From a virus (lineage: Duplodnaviria; Heunggongvirae; Uroviricota; Caudoviricetes): 42,273 bases of DNA. Within the stretch, counting starts at the first letter, position 1; every line of letters starts with the position of its first letter. Both the position numbers and the translations under genes were made by a program. Of the stretch, positions 24,540 through 28,595 are shown one piece after another. The notes under the pieces were generated by a model. The model was not told the DNA's origin and did not search any database. It saw nothing but the letters and a program-made list of their open reading frames with translations. Location: the IMG/VR virus record IMGVR_UViG_2908959467_000004, one strand, 5' to 3'.

Positions 24540-24899
24540 TTACTCCTTCGAGCTACCAAATTTGTTACCGATTACTCGCATTGCAGCCCCACGAATAGCA
24601 TCGACACCGATCAGCCCCACGCCACCACCAATGGCAACAGAAAGCGATTTAGGCCATCCGACATACTCAAGAGCGGATGCAAAGGTCAGCGTCAGTGCGC
24701 CGCAGAGCAAAATCTCAAGCGTTTTTCGTTTCCAGCCGCCGCCACCGCCAAAATAGGCAATGCGCAAACCAGCCATAACAATCGACATAACCACTGCGCC
24801 CAACGGCGTATCTCCACGCCACCAACTTTGTAAGAGTTCCAGTAAGTCAGGCCAGGAATGAGGAGCATTGTGCATTTTCATACTTCCCACCTCCGCCAT
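24540..24899 (-). CDS. holin
   Basis: 119 aa; hydrophobic helices; nested start codons (MAEVGSMKM) typical of holin/antiholin; immediately upstream of the endolysin. Confidence 0.65.
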   Translation of the reverse strand: MAEVGSMKMHNAPHSWPDLLELLQSWWRGDTPLGAVVMSIVMAGLRIAYFGGGGGWKRKTLEILLCGALTLTFASALEYVGWPKSLSVAIGGGVGLIGVDAIRGAAMRVIGNKFGSSKE

Positions 24900-24982
24900 T
24901 ACGGGGTGTTGTTGAAAGGCGGGCCCTGCGTATACGCCCGTAGGATTGGGTTATGAGCCGTCCTTCGGTGGGCCCTGAATAC

Positions 24983-25005
24983 AAAAAAAGTTCGCCATAG
25001 CGAAC
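24983..25005 (-). terminator. putative intrinsic terminator in the late leader (tR'-like)
   Basis: Minus strand GTTCGC-TATG-GCGAAC followed by TTTTTTT. Confidence 0.45.
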
Positions 25006-25236
25006 CTTGTTAAATTTGTTAAAAAAGAAGGTTGTTTAACATAATGTACGTTATAGGAACCACACGATCCCCGCTCGCAATAGATTTGCGATGAAAGGCC
25101 TATTTAATCAACTTAAGTGGTCCAGAATGGCGAAATTCGAGTGAATAAAAGGTGCATAAAAAAGGGCAAAAACTGCATAGCGTTTTTTTCGCGACGAAAA
25201 CCCTGTTTTATTAACTTTTACTGAGAATAGAGCATT

Positions 25237-25258
25237 AAAAAAGCCCCCTTGCGGGAGC
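25237..25258 (-). terminator. putative intrinsic terminator after the Q operon
   Basis: Minus strand GCTCCC-GCAA-GGGGGC (GNRA loop, one G-U pair) followed by TTTTTT. Confidence 0.4.
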
Positions 25259-25326
25259 CTATTCGTGATGAACTGTTTTCAACAGATATCAGGCTAATCG
25301 GCTTTTTGGAATTCCACAACTATTTT

Positions 25327-25668
25327 TTATCTTACCTTGATGCCTGATGCCGTCAGATGTTTACGACAGTCCTGAATACCTTCGTTATAACCCGCATCGT
25401 AGAAGCTATCCGGCTTTGCCTTCAGCGCAGGAAGCGTAACGCTGGTAGCTCTTCGTTCGGCCAGAACACCTGCCTGAAAGAGTGTCCACATCAACTGAAC
25501 TGCTGAATCACAATAAGTAACATCTTCACTGTACAATTCTCGTTCAATCCTGATGCCAAGTTGAGCCTTCATTGATGCGCCAATATTACCTTTGACCTGC
25601 AACGACAAGTCTGGATACCTCTGTTCCATGAAGCTTTCAAATCTGTTGCGAACGCTGATCAGAGCCAT
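25327..25668 (-). CDS. hypothetical protein co-transcribed with the Q-like gene
   Basis: 113 aa; SD AAGGGA 5 nt upstream of ATG; 31 nt downstream of the Q-like stop. Confidence 0.45.
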   Translation of the reverse strand: MALISVRNRFESFMEQRYPDLSLQVKGNIGASMKAQLGIRIERELYSEDVTYCDSAVQLMWTLFQAGVLAERRATSVTLPALKAKPDSFYDAGYNEGIQDCRKHLTASGIKVR

Positions 25669-25699: not shown

Positions 25700-26122
25700 T
25701 TATGCCGCCGAGCAGCTCCTACGCAATGTCCTGATAGCCTGAGGCTTTGACTGAACCGACTGATCCATTTCGAGCACCACATCCAGCATGGCTAAGCAAC
25801 CGTCAATAAATCCCTCTGCCGCCTGAAGCCTCTTCAGAACGTGGGTGTGAGATACGCCGAGCTTCTCACCCATCGTCCGCACGGGCATGGCCTGGACGTA
25901 ATGCCACTCAAGGAGCGTGCACAGATACGGATCTTTTTTCTTCAGGCAGCTCATAGCGGAGTTGATGATAAGACCGTCATTGTCACTGCATTTCAGCCTT
26001 CCAGAGTGCGTCGCGGGTAGCAGATTCTTAAACCCAGCTGCAACAGGAGGAAAGTAGACGCTACCACCTTCACTCGCTGCCCAGCCACCCCAGCGCTCTA
26101 AAACCTGTTGAATATTACGCAT
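25700..26122 (-). CDS. late-gene antiterminator (Q-like)
   Basis: 140 aa; between replication genes and the lysis cassette, followed by a regulatory region with terminators; HTH-like segment MGEKLGVSHTHVLKRLQ. Confidence 0.5.
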   Translation of the reverse strand: MRNIQQVLERWGGWAASEGGSVYFPPVAAGFKNLLPATHSGRLKCSDNDGLIINSAMSCLKKKDPYLCTLLEWHYVQAMPVRTMGEKLGVSHTHVLKRLQAAEGFIDGCLAMLDVVLEMDQSVQSKPQAIRTLRRSCSAA

Positions 26123-26239: not shown

Positions 26240-26440
26240 TCCTTGTTCGGCCTGTACCAGCCTGTACCCACCTGTACCAGCTCTTTTCAAACCTTTTCCC
26301 CAAGCGACTTATATATATATATGGGGTTCTTAGTAATTAGGTTGGTACAGTTGGTACAGTTGGTACTGGCCTTTAAATTCAATTAGTTAAATGTACCAAC
26401 CTCTATTTTGAGGCTGGTACAGGTTGGGACACCGCCTCAA
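26240..26440. repeat. putative replication origin: TGTACCA iterons in both orientations flanking an alternating AT tract
   Basis: CCTGTACC(A/C)(G/A) x3 at 26251-26280; (TA)n tract ~26308-26325; GTTGGTACA x3 at 26339-26367; TGTACCAAC at 26392-26400; CCTGTACCAGCC (minus) at 26417-26428 inside the primase 3' end. Confidence 0.6.
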
Positions 26441-28595
26441 AAATTCGAGTCATTTTTCCGTCAACACGACGTTGAACACGCTTATACCCGCAATTTTGCA
26501 AAACATTACTAATTCGCATTTCTTCGCGTTTTCCGATGCGGTCAGGATTTAGCCCAATCGCATCACGCAAAACATCACTTGCGCGTAAAAATTCGCAATT
26601 TCGCGGAAGTTCATTAGTCATCAGGTCGGGCGTGTCGAGCCATTTCTCTACCGTTTCAAGCCAAGCATCCTTGATGGTGTACTGTTCATGGACACTCGCT
26701 GCCAGTTGTTCAGCCTCACGGAACTGGATACCCCCCAGACGCTGAAACACCTCACGAGCCTCAGCCCAAAGTAAAAGGAGATCTCTTTTTATCGCTTTCA
26801 CGTCGACTTTCGACACTTCCACGGGGAGCCAGCGACGGTTACCAGTCTTGTCCGCAAGGAATTCGTCCTCATTGGTGGTACCAACGAACACCAGGCGACG
26901 AGGAAACTGGGTGGCGAACTCCCGGTATTTCGGGATCCAGTTTTCGTGAGTACGCGTCACAAACGCTTTGATTGACTCCAGCTCTTTGGTATTAAGTCCG
27001 CGCAGTTCACCAATCTCTGCCACCAGCCGACCACGCATTTTTCGAGCGAGATCATCGTCTTTTTCGGCAAAAGAGATTTCAGTAAAAAACGCAGGATCAG
27101 GGCTCAGTGCCTCCACTCCGGAAGACTTACCGCAGCCCTGCGGACCAACGAGGATCGGCACCATATCCGCTTTGATGCCTGGCTCCAGTACTCGCCCCGC
27201 CAACGCGGTCCACATGTACATAGACACCGCACGGGTATAAGGCGTGTCGGCGGTACCGAAGTGCGTATGGTAGAAACATTCGATGCGCGGCACGCCATCC
27301 CACTCCAGTCCGTTCAGCCAGGTGATCGCTGAATCGAATGGTTGTTCATCGGCTGCAAGTAACACCACATCGCGAATAAGTTCACGACCAACAGGTTTAA
27401 ATCCCCGCTTTTCCATCGTGATGCGCAGGCGCGCATAATCCGCATCGGTGAATGCCCGCCATTGTCCGGATCCTGCAGGGGCAAACATGATTTCGTCGCG
27501 GAACTGGTCAAAGCGAATATCGATGTCCACAAAATCAGGGCGTACTACTGCTTTGGCTGCGTTGCTGATGGTTGCCTCGATACGCCCCCATTTATCACGC
27601 TCGAAAGCAGGCAGCGGTAAAGGTTCCGCCACTTCGGTGCTGGTCAGATCTTCGAAATCGTCGTTGCGGATCCCGATGGCATTAAGGAAATCTCCGTCAT
27701 CACGATGCGCACAACTGGCATGCAGGCATTTAAAATGCCCCTGCTCAAAGCCCGCGGTTCCCGCAGGAAAATAAACTGTGCTTGTTGGATCGCCCCCGCT
27801 ACTGTGGCCGTCTTCAAACGGACAGCGGATATATCGTTCACCATTTGCGCCATCCAGCAGCGTCCAGCCATTGGCATCAAGATATTCAGCTGTATCATCC
27901 GTCGCGCCGGGCGTGAATGCTGATCGGTCGCGCATCTTCGTGTTGCCCGCTTCGGTGGTTACCGACACAGGGAGTTGTTCAGCCAGGCGCTGCCACAGCG
28001 TTTCAAGCTGCTCACCAGTAATAGCCGGAGGTTCATCCGGCAAACCGCCGTCCCATTCAATACGCGCGCCGCTGCTGTGCGTACCGCAGGCAACGAACTG
28101 CTGCCCGTTCGCCAGCAACTCGATAATGCCCATATCCCCCGCCAGGCGATGGATACGCTTACGGAAATCACCATCAACGGCCAGCAGATACAGACACTTA
28201 TTACTGTTTGCTCGCCAGCGTCGCGGCGGCAACTCCCCCAGAAGTTGCACAAGCGTTTTGCGAATATCTGCCTGAATGTCTTCATCTTCGCTATCGCAGT
28301 CCAGCGCCAGCCAGCCATGGCCTGTACGCACGCAGATGCCATAATCCGGTTCATTCGACCAGCGGGCAAAATCATGCTCAGTAACAACATGCCCAGTCCA
28401 TTGAGCAATACCGGTGACCTGGCGGTCCCGGTTATAGCGACTCGGCGTCTTACCCAACGCTTTCAGTTTACTATCAGGGGATATGGTCGCACTGGGGTTA
28501 CATACAACTGGGAGAAGATGATCAGTTCTCCCCAATACCAGGTCGAAATGAAACCACTCATCAGGCGTAGCTCCCCATGGTTTGCTATCGGACAT
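26403..28595 (-). CDS. replicative primase-helicase (P4 alpha/D5-like, with primase-polymerase-like N-terminus)
   Basis: 730 aa; Walker A LVGPQGCGKSS in the C-terminal half; Cys/His cluster CPFEDGHSSGG...HFKCLHASCAH; first large gene of the Cro-side operon. Confidence 0.8.
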   Translation of the reverse strand: MSDSKPWGATPDEWFHFDLVLGRTDHLLPVVCNPSATISPDSKLKALGKTPSRYNRDRQVTGIAQWTGHVVTEHDFARWSNEPDYGICVRTGHGWLALDCDSEDEDIQADIRKTLVQLLGELPPRRWRANSNKCLYLLAVDGDFRKRIHRLAGDMGIIELLANGQQFVACGTHSSGARIEWDGGLPDEPPAITGEQLETLWQRLAEQLPVSVTTEAGNTKMRDRSAFTPGATDDTAEYLDANGWTLLDGANGERYIRCPFEDGHSSGGDPTSTVYFPAGTAGFEQGHFKCLHASCAHRDDGDFLNAIGIRNDDFEDLTSTEVAEPLPLPAFERDKWGRIEATISNAAKAVVRPDFVDIDIRFDQFRDEIMFAPAGSGQWRAFTDADYARLRITMEKRGFKPVGRELIRDVVLLAADEQPFDSAITWLNGLEWDGVPRIECFYHTHFGTADTPYTRAVSMYMWTALAGRVLEPGIKADMVPILVGPQGCGKSSGVEALSPDPAFFTEISFAEKDDDLARKMRGRLVAEIGELRGLNTKELESIKAFVTRTHENWIPKYREFATQFPRRLVFVGTTNEDEFLADKTGNRRWLPVEVSKVDVKAIKRDLLLLWAEAREVFQRLGGIQFREAEQLAASVHEQYTIKDAWLETVEKWLDTPDLMTNELPRNCEFLRASDVLRDAIGLNPDRIGKREEMRISNVLQNCGYKRVQRRVDGKMTRIFEAVSQPVPASK

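Follow-up and report, generated by a model that had tools for sequence, protein, structure and literature searches.

The question raised by this locus is how transcription passes from a Q-like antiterminator gene to the lysis and virion genes beyond it, and what the DNA lying between Q and the holin contributes. The window analyzed is a 42,273-nucleotide stretch of a temperate E. coli myovirus-type prophage, in which Q, the intervening DNA, and the holin are described here on the minus strand. We regard the interval, with a probability of about 0.72, as a Q-dependent late control cassette accompanied by a second conserved cassette. The main result is in itself an ordinary one, a Q/pR′/terminator late switch in an E. 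coli prophage. It was obtained by computation and draws on the Q family, promoter homology and register, conserved hairpins, covariation between a palindrome and a Q helix, and synteny of Q with a small gene, ORF113. An initial annotation, made from the letters of the sequence, had already placed a late regulatory region between Q and the holin, and this is supported by a PF06530 Q protein, a promoter module shared with its family, the terminator T1, and the late genes downstream.

Q and the gene behind it

The Q gene (25700..26122, minus strand) encodes a protein of 140 amino acids with a full-length match to the PF06530 profile (E 8e-42, Pfam) and membership of PHROG 79, “anti-termination protein Q-like.” Its nearest characterized relative is the Q protein of 933W/VT2-Sakai, and identity amounts to 42% with VT2-Sakai Q and 44% with P5 of APSE. 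PF06530 is termed the “Q21 family” (PMC9388147), of which Q21 is the only solved member; in a plain sequence comparison, the window Q and Q21 were barely similar (E 0.25), with a weak N-terminal likeness. A helix-turn-helix (HTH) was located at approximately residues 81–100 (..GVSHTHVLKRLQ..). Genes for a lambda-family holin, an endolysin, Rz, and terminase lie 3′ of the region. The prophage is carried by ∼137 of 5426 complete genomes.

The 113-amino acid reading frame noted earlier between Q and the holin, with a good Shine-Dalgarno (SD) sequence, was confirmed. This frame, ORF113 (25327..25668, minus strand), starts 31 nt past the Q stop codon and is preceded by AAGGGA at 25679-25674, 5 nt ahead of its ATG. 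An alignment of 13 homologues, the most distant at 44% identity, contains 26 invariant columns, and ORF113 is therefore considered to be a real gene. Assignment of the protein by profile search, one of the checks proposed in the initial annotation, gave a mixed result: PF26207 (“Phage_phiTE_015”) is precomputed for all 14 ORF113 homologues, being marked weak in the distant ones, but searches of ORF113 against a local Pfam copy and NCBIfam gave no match. The corresponding PHROGs (37465/343) are function-unknown groups, and a literature search for PF26207 returned nothing. An AF2 model of ORF113 comprises three helices (pLDDT 72.7), for which comparison with the PDB gave no fold match.

Homologues of ORF113 invariably follow a PF06530 Q, at 15–31 nt, or a DUF1133 Q-like gene, and this arrangement is retained even at 36–48% identity. 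The earlier description of the frame as an unknown gene coupled to Q is thus borne out by conserved synteny. ORF113 is missing by deletion in phage 611R5 and frameshifted in five further loci (L039/40/48/68/97), and it may be a dispensable protein that is co-inherited with Q. The link of PF26207 to Q-like genes from two Pfam families suggests an unrecognized accessory factor of late-gene control, and ORF113 could be an accessory modulator of Q. A search with the ORF113 alignment recovered related loci from a collection of viral contigs but no confirmed locus from genome contigs.

The predicted late promoter module and its terminators

The DNA between ORF113 and the holin had been described as ∼430 bp of non-coding sequence in which a pR′/qut-type promoter and a short terminated leader RNA would be expected, with the promoter hexamers left unplaced. 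The gap is indeed non-coding, its true length being 445 nt (25326..24882). Both the promoter and the leader are supported by a family promoter module and by T1, which lies ∼25 nt past the predicted start. The hexamers can now be assigned to the extreme upstream edge of the gap, 7 nt after the ORF113 stop codon. The predicted late promoter falls 375 nt past the Q stop codon, behind the intervening conserved ORF113.

Gapless alignment of 14 family promoters revealed a common order of A-tract, palindrome plus AAAAA, TAnnnT, G(T/A)TAAG, start, and hairpin with U-tract. The window module (25328-25284) is homologous without gaps, and in exact register, to the mapped pR′ of the Stx phages VT2-Sakai (Sp5) and 933W, whose pR′-StxS-tR′ unit is governed by a Q of the same Pfam family; the two share the A-tract, a palindrome covering the −35 with AAAAA behind it, TAnnnT, and a hairpin with a U-tract ∼25 nt past the start. 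In the window, the A-tract AAAAAATAG (25320..25328, minus strand) lies just 5′ of the −35 and overlaps the ORF113 stop codon. An A-rich tract is present at −45 to −36 in 14/14 aligned promoters, and we take that of the window to be UP-element-like, given its resemblance to the proximal UP subsite consensus. The palindrome TTGTGGAATTCCAA (25306..25319, minus strand) extends from −35 to −22, its left half, TTGTGG, serving as the −35, and is a putative Q-binding element. A 17-bp spacer separates TTGTGG from the −10 hexamer TAGCCT (25291..25296, minus strand), which falls in the TAnnnT/CAnnnT column when aligned without gaps to 13 family promoters. The VT2-Sakai −10 in this column is TATCAT, 6 nt before its derived start.

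The transcription start was transferred from VT2-Sakai, in which pR′ is constitutive and its transcript prematurely terminated (PMC7547250). That study gives dRNA-seq coordinates, a transcript length of 258 nt, and cleavage by RNase E (GU|AUU) at +173 (PMC7547250). Direct use of the published coordinates was abandoned because they fall inside Q in NC_002695.2, so that a different record version must apply; the start was therefore recovered from the RNase E cut and the transcript length as the A at L004:1957. This dRNA-seq-derived start falls 7 nt after the TAnnnT column, and the same register places the predicted start in the window at ∼25284 (25283..25285, minus strand; approximately ±2 nt).

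When the whole 42-kb window was searched on both strands with the family promoter profile, the best match was 25319-25283, although an E-value of 0.14 is modest by itself. Both hexamers are weak, with three of six consensus matches each, and a simple consensus scan did not call a late promoter at 25319-25291. Promoter prediction, suggested previously as a check, thus picked out the site by family profile but not by consensus.

A candidate sigma-dependent pause element, assigned with low confidence, is AACAGT (25272..25277, minus strand; +8 to +13), which has the pattern xAxxxT. It sits one nucleotide downstream of TACATT (+7 to +12) of VT2-Sakai and is not kept in all family members, the equivalent position being −10-like in VT2-Sakai, ASU11, L017, and L018 but not in L012, L013, and L016. 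The initially transcribed sequence of the window, TGTTGAAAACAG, is devoid of the AGAGTGGTTAC box that is common to most family members, including those with the same palindrome, and this leaves the assignment of a pause or loading element in doubt.

Two intrinsic-terminator hairpins had been noted on the late strand, and both are present. A terminator scan of 2.1 kb found four hairpins over both strands, a count that is not above the shuffled expectation of 2.6 ± 1.5, and the case for T1 and T2 therefore rests on folding and conservation. T1, AGGCTCCCGCAAGGGGGCTT followed by T6 (25235..25260, minus strand), consists of a hairpin at 25260-25241 and a U-tract and would be the tR′ equivalent; T2, AAGGTTCGCTATGGCGAACTTT followed by T7 (24980..25008, minus strand), has its hairpin at 25008-24987. 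The T1 leader folds with −17.6 kcal/mol and T2 with −16.5 kcal/mol (z approximately −3.2 in each case), and the positions of both are conserved. A T1-like hairpin with a U-tract is present at +25 to +50 in nearly all family modules, and T1 stems in relatives either carry wobble or compensatory changes (CCC/GGG to CTC/GAG; L014 and L072) or are wholly different (L017 and L018). In the place of T2, terminators with unrelated stems are found in L061, L063, L072, L075, and Yersinia phage YP3.

Because the promoter lies at the upstream edge of the gap, the short leader would end at the first hairpin, T1, rather than the second, giving a predicted RNA of ∼45–50 nt from the inferred start. T1 probably also ends the early transcript of Q and ORF113. 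In E. coli prophages with other Q alleles, homology to the window breaks inside T1, from which it follows that Q, qut, and T1 form one exchangeable cassette. The published tR′ of VT2-Sakai is at +258 rather than at its first hairpin, ∼+25 (PMC7547250), and the termination efficiency of T1 is accordingly a prediction. The terminated VT2-Sakai RNA of 258 nt is processed to an Hfq-binding sRNA (PMC7547250); comparison of the window leader with StxS found no sequence similarity, and the leader had no Rfam match. VT2-Sakai further differs in having no gene between Q and pR′ and in the tRNA and stx genes that follow.

From these features we infer where transcription starts and how Q binds, polymerase pauses, and the terminators are read through, as follows. 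Early rightward transcription, as judged from gene order, would yield primase, Q, and ORF113. A constitutive sigma-70 promoter 7 nt past the ORF113 stop (25328-25291) would initiate at ∼25284, and RNA polymerase would, without Q, stop at T1 to leave the leader of ∼45–50 nt. The HTH of Q would bind TTGTGGAATTCCAA at −35 to −22, probably as two protomers, and Q would load onto polymerase paused early in the leader, possibly at AACAGT, to render it terminator-resistant. The Q-modified polymerase could then read through T1 and T2 into the holin, endolysin, Rz, terminase, and virion genes.

The conserved cassette between T1 and the holin

The DNA between T1 and T2, region B, contains two conserved blocks. 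Block 1, AAAAAACGCTATGCAnTTT...TTTTATGCACnnTTTATTCACTCG (25138..25189, minus strand), includes TATGCA twice, 21 bp apart, and two DnaA-box-like 9-mers 10 bp apart. It is nearly invariant in 39 viral contigs, YP3, Pantoea, and Entomohabitans and occurs as one copy only within the window. Block 2, GGTnCnnnTAACGTACATTATGTTAAA (25035..25061, minus strand), has the invariant core CATTATGTTAAA and carries −10-like hexamers on both strands (CATTAT/CATAAT). It lies 105 nt from block 1, and this distance is fixed in 15/17 distinct sequences. A consensus scan called a plus-strand promoter-like site, TTGTTA-18-CATAAT, at 25016-25045. In Pantoea, the region B cassette is situated between terS and terL.

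The variable middle of region B holds the palindrome to which the initial annotation drew attention, TCGCAA-ATCTA-TTGCGA. It is perfect, as described, but lies at 25075..25091 (minus strand), 2 nt from the reported 25073-25089. The 445 nt contain four perfect inverted repeats of 6 bp whose loop is at most 8 nt, a number not above chance (1.7 ± 1.8 in simulation; P = 0.14), and TCGCAA-N5-TTGCGA is degraded or absent in L014, L061, L071, L074, L075, L089, and YP3. By these comparisons, it is lineage-specific, lies within another conserved element, and is not the Q site. A second degenerate qut copy around this palindrome (“module B,” TCGCAA..GTGGTTCC), which by eye shares a 22-nt spacing with the family, was rejected: the palindrome is not conserved, and the family profile gave no match there even at E<100.

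Coding and structured-RNA explanations of region B were likewise discarded. A plus-strand frame of 34 codons (MYVIGTTRS...) shows third-position changes that looked coding, but it has in-frame stops in most lineages, lacks an ATG in YP3, and is frameshifted in L071. In a late-strand frame of 21 codons (MQFLPFFMH..), third positions are invariant next to first and second positions that vary, and codon 4 is a stop in L075 and L089. Consensus folding (alifold) of ∼250 nt on either strand gave −6 and −10 kcal/mol, and the covariance penalty was positive. Inspection of blocks 1 and 2 by eye for sigma-54, sigma-28, sigma-E, CII-type, and Ogr-type motifs found none that fits.

Between T2 and the holin is the GGGCCC-flanked stem of the initial annotation, which was present, at 24921..24975 (minus strand) rather than ∼24925-24980, as a branched, GGGCCC-closed stem-loop of 18 pairs. 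Its single-sequence fold is unremarkable (z −1.8). Across seven distinct sequences, however, 126/126 pair cells are standard, with three double compensatory pairs and two wobble changes, against 21–47% pairing in slid-pairing controls, consistent with a structured RNA. The apical arm GGCTCATAACCC (24948-24959) equals the tRNA-fMet anticodon arm, with identity to metY, a 12-nt match that was noticed post hoc; an 11-mer of this arm is unique within the window. ARAGORN found 0 tRNA or tmRNA genes in the window, and the stem-loop is not a tRNA. Searches with Rfam 15 gave no match in the window at the gathering score, and at E<10 the segment 24850-25350 yielded only sub-threshold matches at chance level. 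The thrS operator is a tRNA anticodon-arm mimic in an mRNA leader; as in mimics of that type, the apical arm of the window stem-loop, GGCUCAUAACCC, is identical to a tRNA anticodon arm, that of tRNA-fMet.

The stem-loop is ∼40 nt upstream of the holin start in the window and ∼190 nt upstream of the next gene in L061. The holin (24540..24881, minus strand; 113 amino acids; PF05106, E 1e-27) has a Met-Lys-Met dual start (ATG at 24881 and 24875). It begins at ATGAAAATG at 24881, not at the upstream ATG at 24899, and RefSeq relatives are annotated with 113 amino acids. The holin SD, GGAGGTG, is predicted to pair with an upstream CACCCCG in the fold of 24870-24985. The lambda pR′/6S RNA/tR′ unit with its S dual start (sdi) resembles the window in having a terminated leader ahead of a PF05106 holin, the Met-Lys-Met start, and an SD sequence predicted to lie in a hairpin. 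The lambda leader is 194 nt and lambda Q belongs to the unrelated family PF03589; lambda has no frame between Q and pR′, no region B, and no GGGCCC stem-loop.

Judged by conservation, region B (∼250 nt), T2, and the stem-loop behind it make up an independent conserved unit, for which a second promoter-terminator unit and a terminase or packaging recognition site are the candidate roles. A joint reading, less likely than not, is that the 330 nt extending from T1 up to the holin form an undescribed autonomous cis-acting cassette, made up of block 1, the fixed 105-nt spacer, block 2, T2, and the covariation-supported stem-loop. It would act as a second regulated late promoter-terminator unit or a terminase site, with the stem-loop as a tRNA-fMet mimic in addition. 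Such a cassette would move independently of the upstream Q allele and the downstream lysis cassette, and other genera would have a shorter form of it as their terS-terL spacer. A non-coding cassette that is strongly conserved and includes a tRNA-fMet-like stem-loop does sit in the late leader; were the joint reading true, the stem-loop would be a tRNA-fMet mimic tuning expression of the downstream late genes.

Region B could alternatively be a DNA recognition site of the pac/cos type for the packaging machinery and not a transcription element. Its two blocks are conserved beyond the neighboring genes at a fixed 105 bp, or ∼10 helical turns, and their repeats keep the helical phase, with 21 bp from one TATGCA to the next and 10 bp between the two TTATnCAC. 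Region B also has no conserved RNA structure on either strand, is not coding, and is always upstream, in the same orientation, of a conserved TerL (71–95% identity), following terS directly in Pantoea, L089, L074, L075, and YP3. This explanation is rather unlikely, however: TerS is only 26% identical between contexts that share region B, the window has region B 1.5 kb upstream of terS with lysis genes between, and in L075 region B precedes head genes with no terL. Phage records were of no help as evidence on termini, since those available are extracted prophages, that of 611R5 ending in host genes.

It is less probable that the Q-dependent late promoter is at block 2 (−10 CATTAT at 25046-25041, start ∼25034), with T2 as the leader terminator and T1 ending the early Q-ORF113 transcript. 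The block 2 sequence CATTAT plus GTTAAA is invariant and resembles the family −10 followed by GTTAAG; T2 begins ∼27 nt past the implied start, which matches the geometry of pR′ and T1; terminators with unrelated stems are retained at the T2 place in several lineages; and in Pantoea and L089 block 2 precedes the terL start codon by ∼30 nt, where a promoter would make sense. Block 2 nevertheless lacks a −35 and, at −35 to −22, any palindrome that fits the Q helix, and the family promoter profile does not match it even at E<100. It also occurs downstream of terS in phages without an adjacent Q, and YP3 has CCTTAT in place of CATTAT. The −10 is palindromic and fits the opposite strand equally, and the scan calls the plus-strand site only. 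A promoter at block 2 and pR′ at 25296 could, moreover, coexist.

The palindrome and the Q recognition helix

Assignment of the late promoter to the module behind ORF113 also yields a candidate Q site. The sequence of the module palindrome co-varies with the Q recognition helix over at least seven allele groups. The helix SHTxVLKRLQ goes with TTGTGGAATTCCAA in seven loci, the Q proteins of which are 62–70% identical to that of the window, and CSDTxIGKxL goes with TTTACGATCGTAAA, the VT2-Sakai palindrome, which differs from that of the window. The helices of the ASU11/mEp390/APSE-1 group (KSEKAIRIEMQ, KDEKIIRIEIQ, and VDEGLIRAKLL) are paired with GTGCGGTCCGCAA, and SHLSVRTSLR is paired with TGTGCGCACA. 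Three promoters that are otherwise nearly the same diverge in the central triplet alone (CTA/GGC/TGT), with the helix changing along. TTGTGGAATTCCAA is thus the likely Q-binding site, and the TCGCAA palindrome is not. Several alleles have the palindrome within the coding sequence of Q, and the covariation may therefore partly reflect co-inheritance of neighboring DNA.

The structurally solved member of the family is not arranged in this way. Phage 21 Q21 (Q21/QBE/SDPE; 6P18 and 6JNX) shares PF06530 with the window Q, and the proposed logic is alike, with a Q site in the promoter, a promoter-proximal pause, a terminator, and then the late genes. The Q21 element, though, is a direct repeat in the spacer (TGAGCA twice) bound from different helix faces (PMC6606751), and the mutated positions −21 and −13 in that paper would put it at approximately −26 to −13. 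No direct repeat was found at −26 to −13 of the window module, so that the Q21-type architecture is absent there; the predicted site is instead a palindrome at −35 to −22. The recognition of direct repeats in the spacer by Q21, and the fact that a perfect 10-bp palindrome is not rare by chance, would be in keeping with TTGTGGAATTCCAA being merely −35/UP context or the operator of another regulator, with Q reading something else. This is quite improbable in view of how the palindrome varies with the Q helix from allele to allele, down to exchanges of the central triplet between promoters that are otherwise identical, and the module shows no other conserved allele-specific element. A literature search found no description of the Q-binding site of the 933W-type branch of Q. 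The palindrome constitutes an allele-resolved, testable DNA-site prediction for this branch of the Q21 family, which controls Shiga-toxin expression, and the predicted site is unlike the direct repeat in the Q21 structures.

That ORF113 is instead the first late-operon gene, with its promoter overlapping the Q end (TTGCGT-16-CATAAT, 25727-25699) and T1 as tR′ after a coding leader, is very improbable: although the site has five of six −10 positions (CATAAT), a TTG-containing −35, and 16-bp spacing, is retained in L014, and would recall classical lambdoid phages, in which pR′ abuts Q, its CATAAT is the last Ala codon plus the stop codon and is lost in L012 (CATAAA) and L013 (GCGTAA), the Q end has no A-tract or palindrome, and the family module with the correct palindrome follows ORF113 in every ORF113-bearing locus. 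The 17-mer TTGTGGAATTCCAAAAA is 17/17 identical in loci from Rahnella, Y. ruckeri, and metagenomes, 2–7 nt after the ORF113 stop codon, in surroundings where ORF113 DNA is only 57–58% identical and the 95 nt past its stop only 52–54%.

Probable Promoter and Leader of the Late Control Region

The window belongs to a temperate E. coli phage whose late region, on the − strand, consists of a VapE-type primase gene (26403–28595), a Q-like gene (25700–26122), the 113-aa ORF113 (25327–25668), and a non-coding stretch followed in order by holin, endolysin, Rz/Rz1, terS, and terL. This region was also found at 95–99% identity in 137 of 5426 complete E. coli genomes and in four phage records named “vB_EcoM.” All of the features listed in the initial annotation were found in the sequence, and its description correctly identifies a Q-dependent late control region of ordinary type. 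Comparison now places the promoter within it, together with the probable Q site and the terminator of the leader. Interest is modestly raised by the Q-linked PF26207 protein, a mobile conserved cassette of region B (the interval between terminators T1 and T2) with T2, and a tRNA-fMet-like stem-loop.

The Q product matched the antiterminator family PF06530 over the entire Pfam profile (E 8e-42); this family is named Q21 in the structural literature (PMC9388147). The nearest characterised relatives are Q of the Stx phages 933W/VT2-Sakai (42% identity) and P5 of APSE (44%). A PDB sequence search matched Q21 alone, marginally and at the N terminus (E 0.25), and this branch is therefore without a solved structure.

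To place the late promoter (pR′), DNA following the Q gene was aligned from 13 other family members: the phages VT2-Sakai, Morganella IME1369_01, ASU11, mEp390, APSE-1, and PhiR29 and 3W (QuuD-like); the E. coli prophage alleles L017 and L018; the Escherichia sp. prophage L014; and loci from Rahnella (L012), Yersinia ruckeri (L013), and a metagenome (L016). The promoter regions aligned without gaps across ∼67 nt in a common order: an A-tract at −45 to −36, an allele-specific palindrome at −35 to −22 and then AAAAA, TAnnnT (or CAnnnT) at −12 to −7, G(T/A)TAAG, the start, and a hairpin with a U-tract from ∼+25. The register was anchored on the pR′ start of VT2-Sakai, for which a published dRNA-seq and Term-seq study describes a 258-nt transcript cut by RNase E at +173, between GU and AUU (PMC7547250). 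The corresponding +1, derived from these positions in the sequence, is the A of AAGAGTGG, 7 nt after TATCAT.

The window matches this register on the − strand, with the A-tract AAAAAATAG at 25328–25320, the palindrome TTGTGG-AATTCCAA at 25319–25306, a −10 hexamer TAGCCT at 25296–25291, and an inferred start near 25284. A family profile built with the window excluded gave this site as the best match anywhere in the window, on either strand; its E value of 0.14 is modest because the palindrome column differs among alleles. Stronger evidence comes from a phylogenetic footprint. The 17-mer TTGTGGAATTCCAAAAA, 2–7 nt after the ORF113 stop, is unchanged in the Rahnella, Y. ruckeri, and metagenomic loci, where ORF113 DNA is only 57–58% identical to that of the window and the 95 nt past the stop only 52–54%. 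Profile, register, and footprint together therefore place the late promoter at the far upstream edge of the spacer. A pR′/qut-type promoter and short leader had been expected between Q and the holin; the terminated leader is predicted to be ∼45–50 nt, ending at T1.

Within the leader, AACAGT at +8 to +13 is an uncertain candidate for a pause element: it is −10-like and falls 1 nt further downstream than TACATT does in VT2-Sakai (+7 to +12); the window lineage lacks the AGAGTGGTTAC box common to most relatives. In some relatives (L041, 1900–1980; L051–L056, ∼1880–1950), the box that family members transcribe initially has a second lookalike (TATAAGAGTTATCTGTGTG / GTTCAGAGTTACATGTGTG) past the first terminator after the ORF113 homologue, and tandem late-promoter-like modules may therefore occur.

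Putative Q Site and Exchange at T1

The palindrome was found to follow the Q recognition helix across alleles. Helix SHTxVLKRLQ accompanies TTGTGGAATTCCAA at seven loci (Q 62–70% identical to the window Q), CSDTxIGKxL accompanies TTTACGATCGTAAA in VT2-Sakai and the Morganella phage, and SHLSVRTSLR accompanies TGTGCGCACA in L018 and L071; GTGCGGTCCGCAA is common to ASU11, mEp390, and APSE-1. The most telling covariation is seen among three E. coli alleles whose promoters differ little except in the central triplet of TGCG-NNN-CGCA (CTA, GGC, or TGT), which changes with the helix sequence. Linkage adds to this covariation, because in several alleles the palindrome lies inside the end of the Q coding sequence. 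The palindrome is the probable Q-binding element (qut). It is unlike the element of Q21, which consists of a direct repeat located in the spacer (PMC6606751).

The two late-strand terminators of the initial annotation were recovered by a terminator scan as T1 (25260–25241, beginning at +25) and T2 (25008–24987). Their number is not above chance; each folds well (z ∼ −3.2), and both are kept in relatives with altered stems. In E. coli prophages that have another Q allele and lack ORF113, homology to the window begins only in the 3′ half of T1; the unit exchanged therefore comprises Q and its site together with the promoter and T1. In VT2-Sakai (L004, 1980–2006), a strong hairpin with U7 (GAACCCGCCGATGCGCGGGTTTTTTT) was observed ∼24–50 nt after the mapped pR′ start. 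The published tR′ lies far beyond it, at +258 (PMC7547250), and the hairpin is not named as a terminator in the passages of the StxS paper that were consulted.

Region B between T1 and T2

Region B is more than spacer DNA. Two blocks on the − strand are almost invariant among 39 viral contigs, Yersinia phage YP3, Pantoea stewartii, and Entomohabitans: block 1 (25189–25138), with two copies of TATGCA 21 bp apart and a pair of TTATnCAC 9-mers 10 bp apart, and block 2 (25061–25035), with the core CATTATGTTAAA. The gap between them is variable in sequence and fixed at 105 nt. The palindrome TCGCAA-N5-TTGCGA singled out in the initial annotation is perfect, at 25075–25091 rather than ∼25073–25089, and falls in the variable part, where it is lineage-specific. 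Such a repeat is expected by chance, because four 6+6 inverted repeats were seen against 1.7 ± 1.8 simulated (P = 0.14).

Region B always faces the same way with respect to the late genes, but its neighbours vary. In E. coli it follows Q-qut-T1, with differing Q alleles upstream and lysis cassettes downstream; in Pantoea and L089 it forms the entire gap between a different terS (26% identity) and a conserved terL (82–91%); and in L075 it lies ahead of head genes. Searches of region B found no coding capacity, conserved RNA fold, or Rfam match.

Region B may be read in either of two ways. It could be a terminase recognition site, as the repeats lie in helical phase, the spacing is constant, and the element is linked to TerL. 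A second promoter-terminator unit is suggested by a −10-like CATTAT followed by GTTAAA, which recalls the family promoters, and by T2 at ∼+27, where terminators with unrelated stems are kept; however, this −10 is palindromic, and the promoter scan calls the + strand version. That promoter-like site, TTGTTA-18-CATAAT (+ strand, 25016–25045), has its back to the late genes and is directed toward T1, ORF113, and Q; it could make antisense RNA. Escherichia sp. E1130 (L014) retains both hexamers, whereas the spacer there has diverged.

In Entomohabitans teleogrylli (L101, ∼294–1230), region B and terL are separated by an inserted HicA-like toxin gene that has a near-consensus promoter of its own (TTGACG-17-TATAAT). 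The YP3 record (L059, PV092592.1, 31387–36990) holds a second baseplate/tail-fibre gene set, an endolysin, a different terS, and a copy of region B, and two copies of a related repeat, ATATGCCGCA, 21 bp apart, precede that terS; the record may combine two related phages, or a phage and a satellite, in one chimera.

ORF113, the Stem-Loop, and the Holin Start

ORF113 begins 31 nt after the Q stop, with AAGGGA 5 nt before its ATG, in keeping with the good Shine-Dalgarno sequence noted initially. By sequence comparison it is a genuine conserved protein, assigned in the database to family PF26207 (“Phage_phiTE_015”). The proposed coupling to Q is borne out by homologues of 45–48% identity, found in lambdoid backgrounds that are otherwise different and lying 15–20 nt after a PF06530 Q, and by those of 36% identity after a DUF1133 protein (a Q-related family). 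ORF113 is dispensable, at least for prophage maintenance: it carries an internal deletion in phage 611R5 and frameshifts in several prophages. Its predicted model (pLDDT 72.7) comprises three helices and gave no fold match in the PDB; no literature on PF26207 was found. That ORF113 modulates how Q acts is a guess.

The GGGCCC-closed stem of the initial annotation is present at 24921–24975, and covariation backs it. Its single-sequence fold is unremarkable (z −1.8); all 18 predicted pairs are standard in each of seven distinct sequences from two lineages, with three double compensatory pairs (two C-G to U-A, one A-U to C-G) plus two wobble changes, and unpaired positions often differ. Sliding the pairing by 1–3 columns left 21–47% paired. 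The three compensations amount to one comparison rather than three independent events, because all separate the same two lineages. The apical arm GGCUCAUAACCC / GGCTCATAACCC (24948–24959), the sole copy of this motif in the window, is identical to the anticodon arm of the E. coli initiator tRNA (tRNA-fMet, metY) and is thus a putative tRNA-fMet mimic; ARAGORN called no tRNA in the window.

The holin start is ATGAAAATG (24881), and RefSeq relatives are annotated at matching length; the non-coding spacer is therefore 445 nt rather than ∼430 bp. The Met-Lys-Met dual start (ATG at 24881 and 24875) is typical of lambda-family holins. Within 24873–24905, the holin Shine-Dalgarno sequence GGAGGTG is predicted to pair with an upstream CACCCCG, which, with the dual start, is reminiscent of the sdi structure that sets the holin/antiholin ratio in lambda S.

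The primase-Q gap (26240–26420) contains arrays of a 9–10-bp unit, GTTGGTACA three times and TGTACC(A/C)(G/A)CC three times, in both orientations about a (TA)n run at ∼26310–26325. These look like iterons of a replication origin beside the VapE-type primase-helicase.
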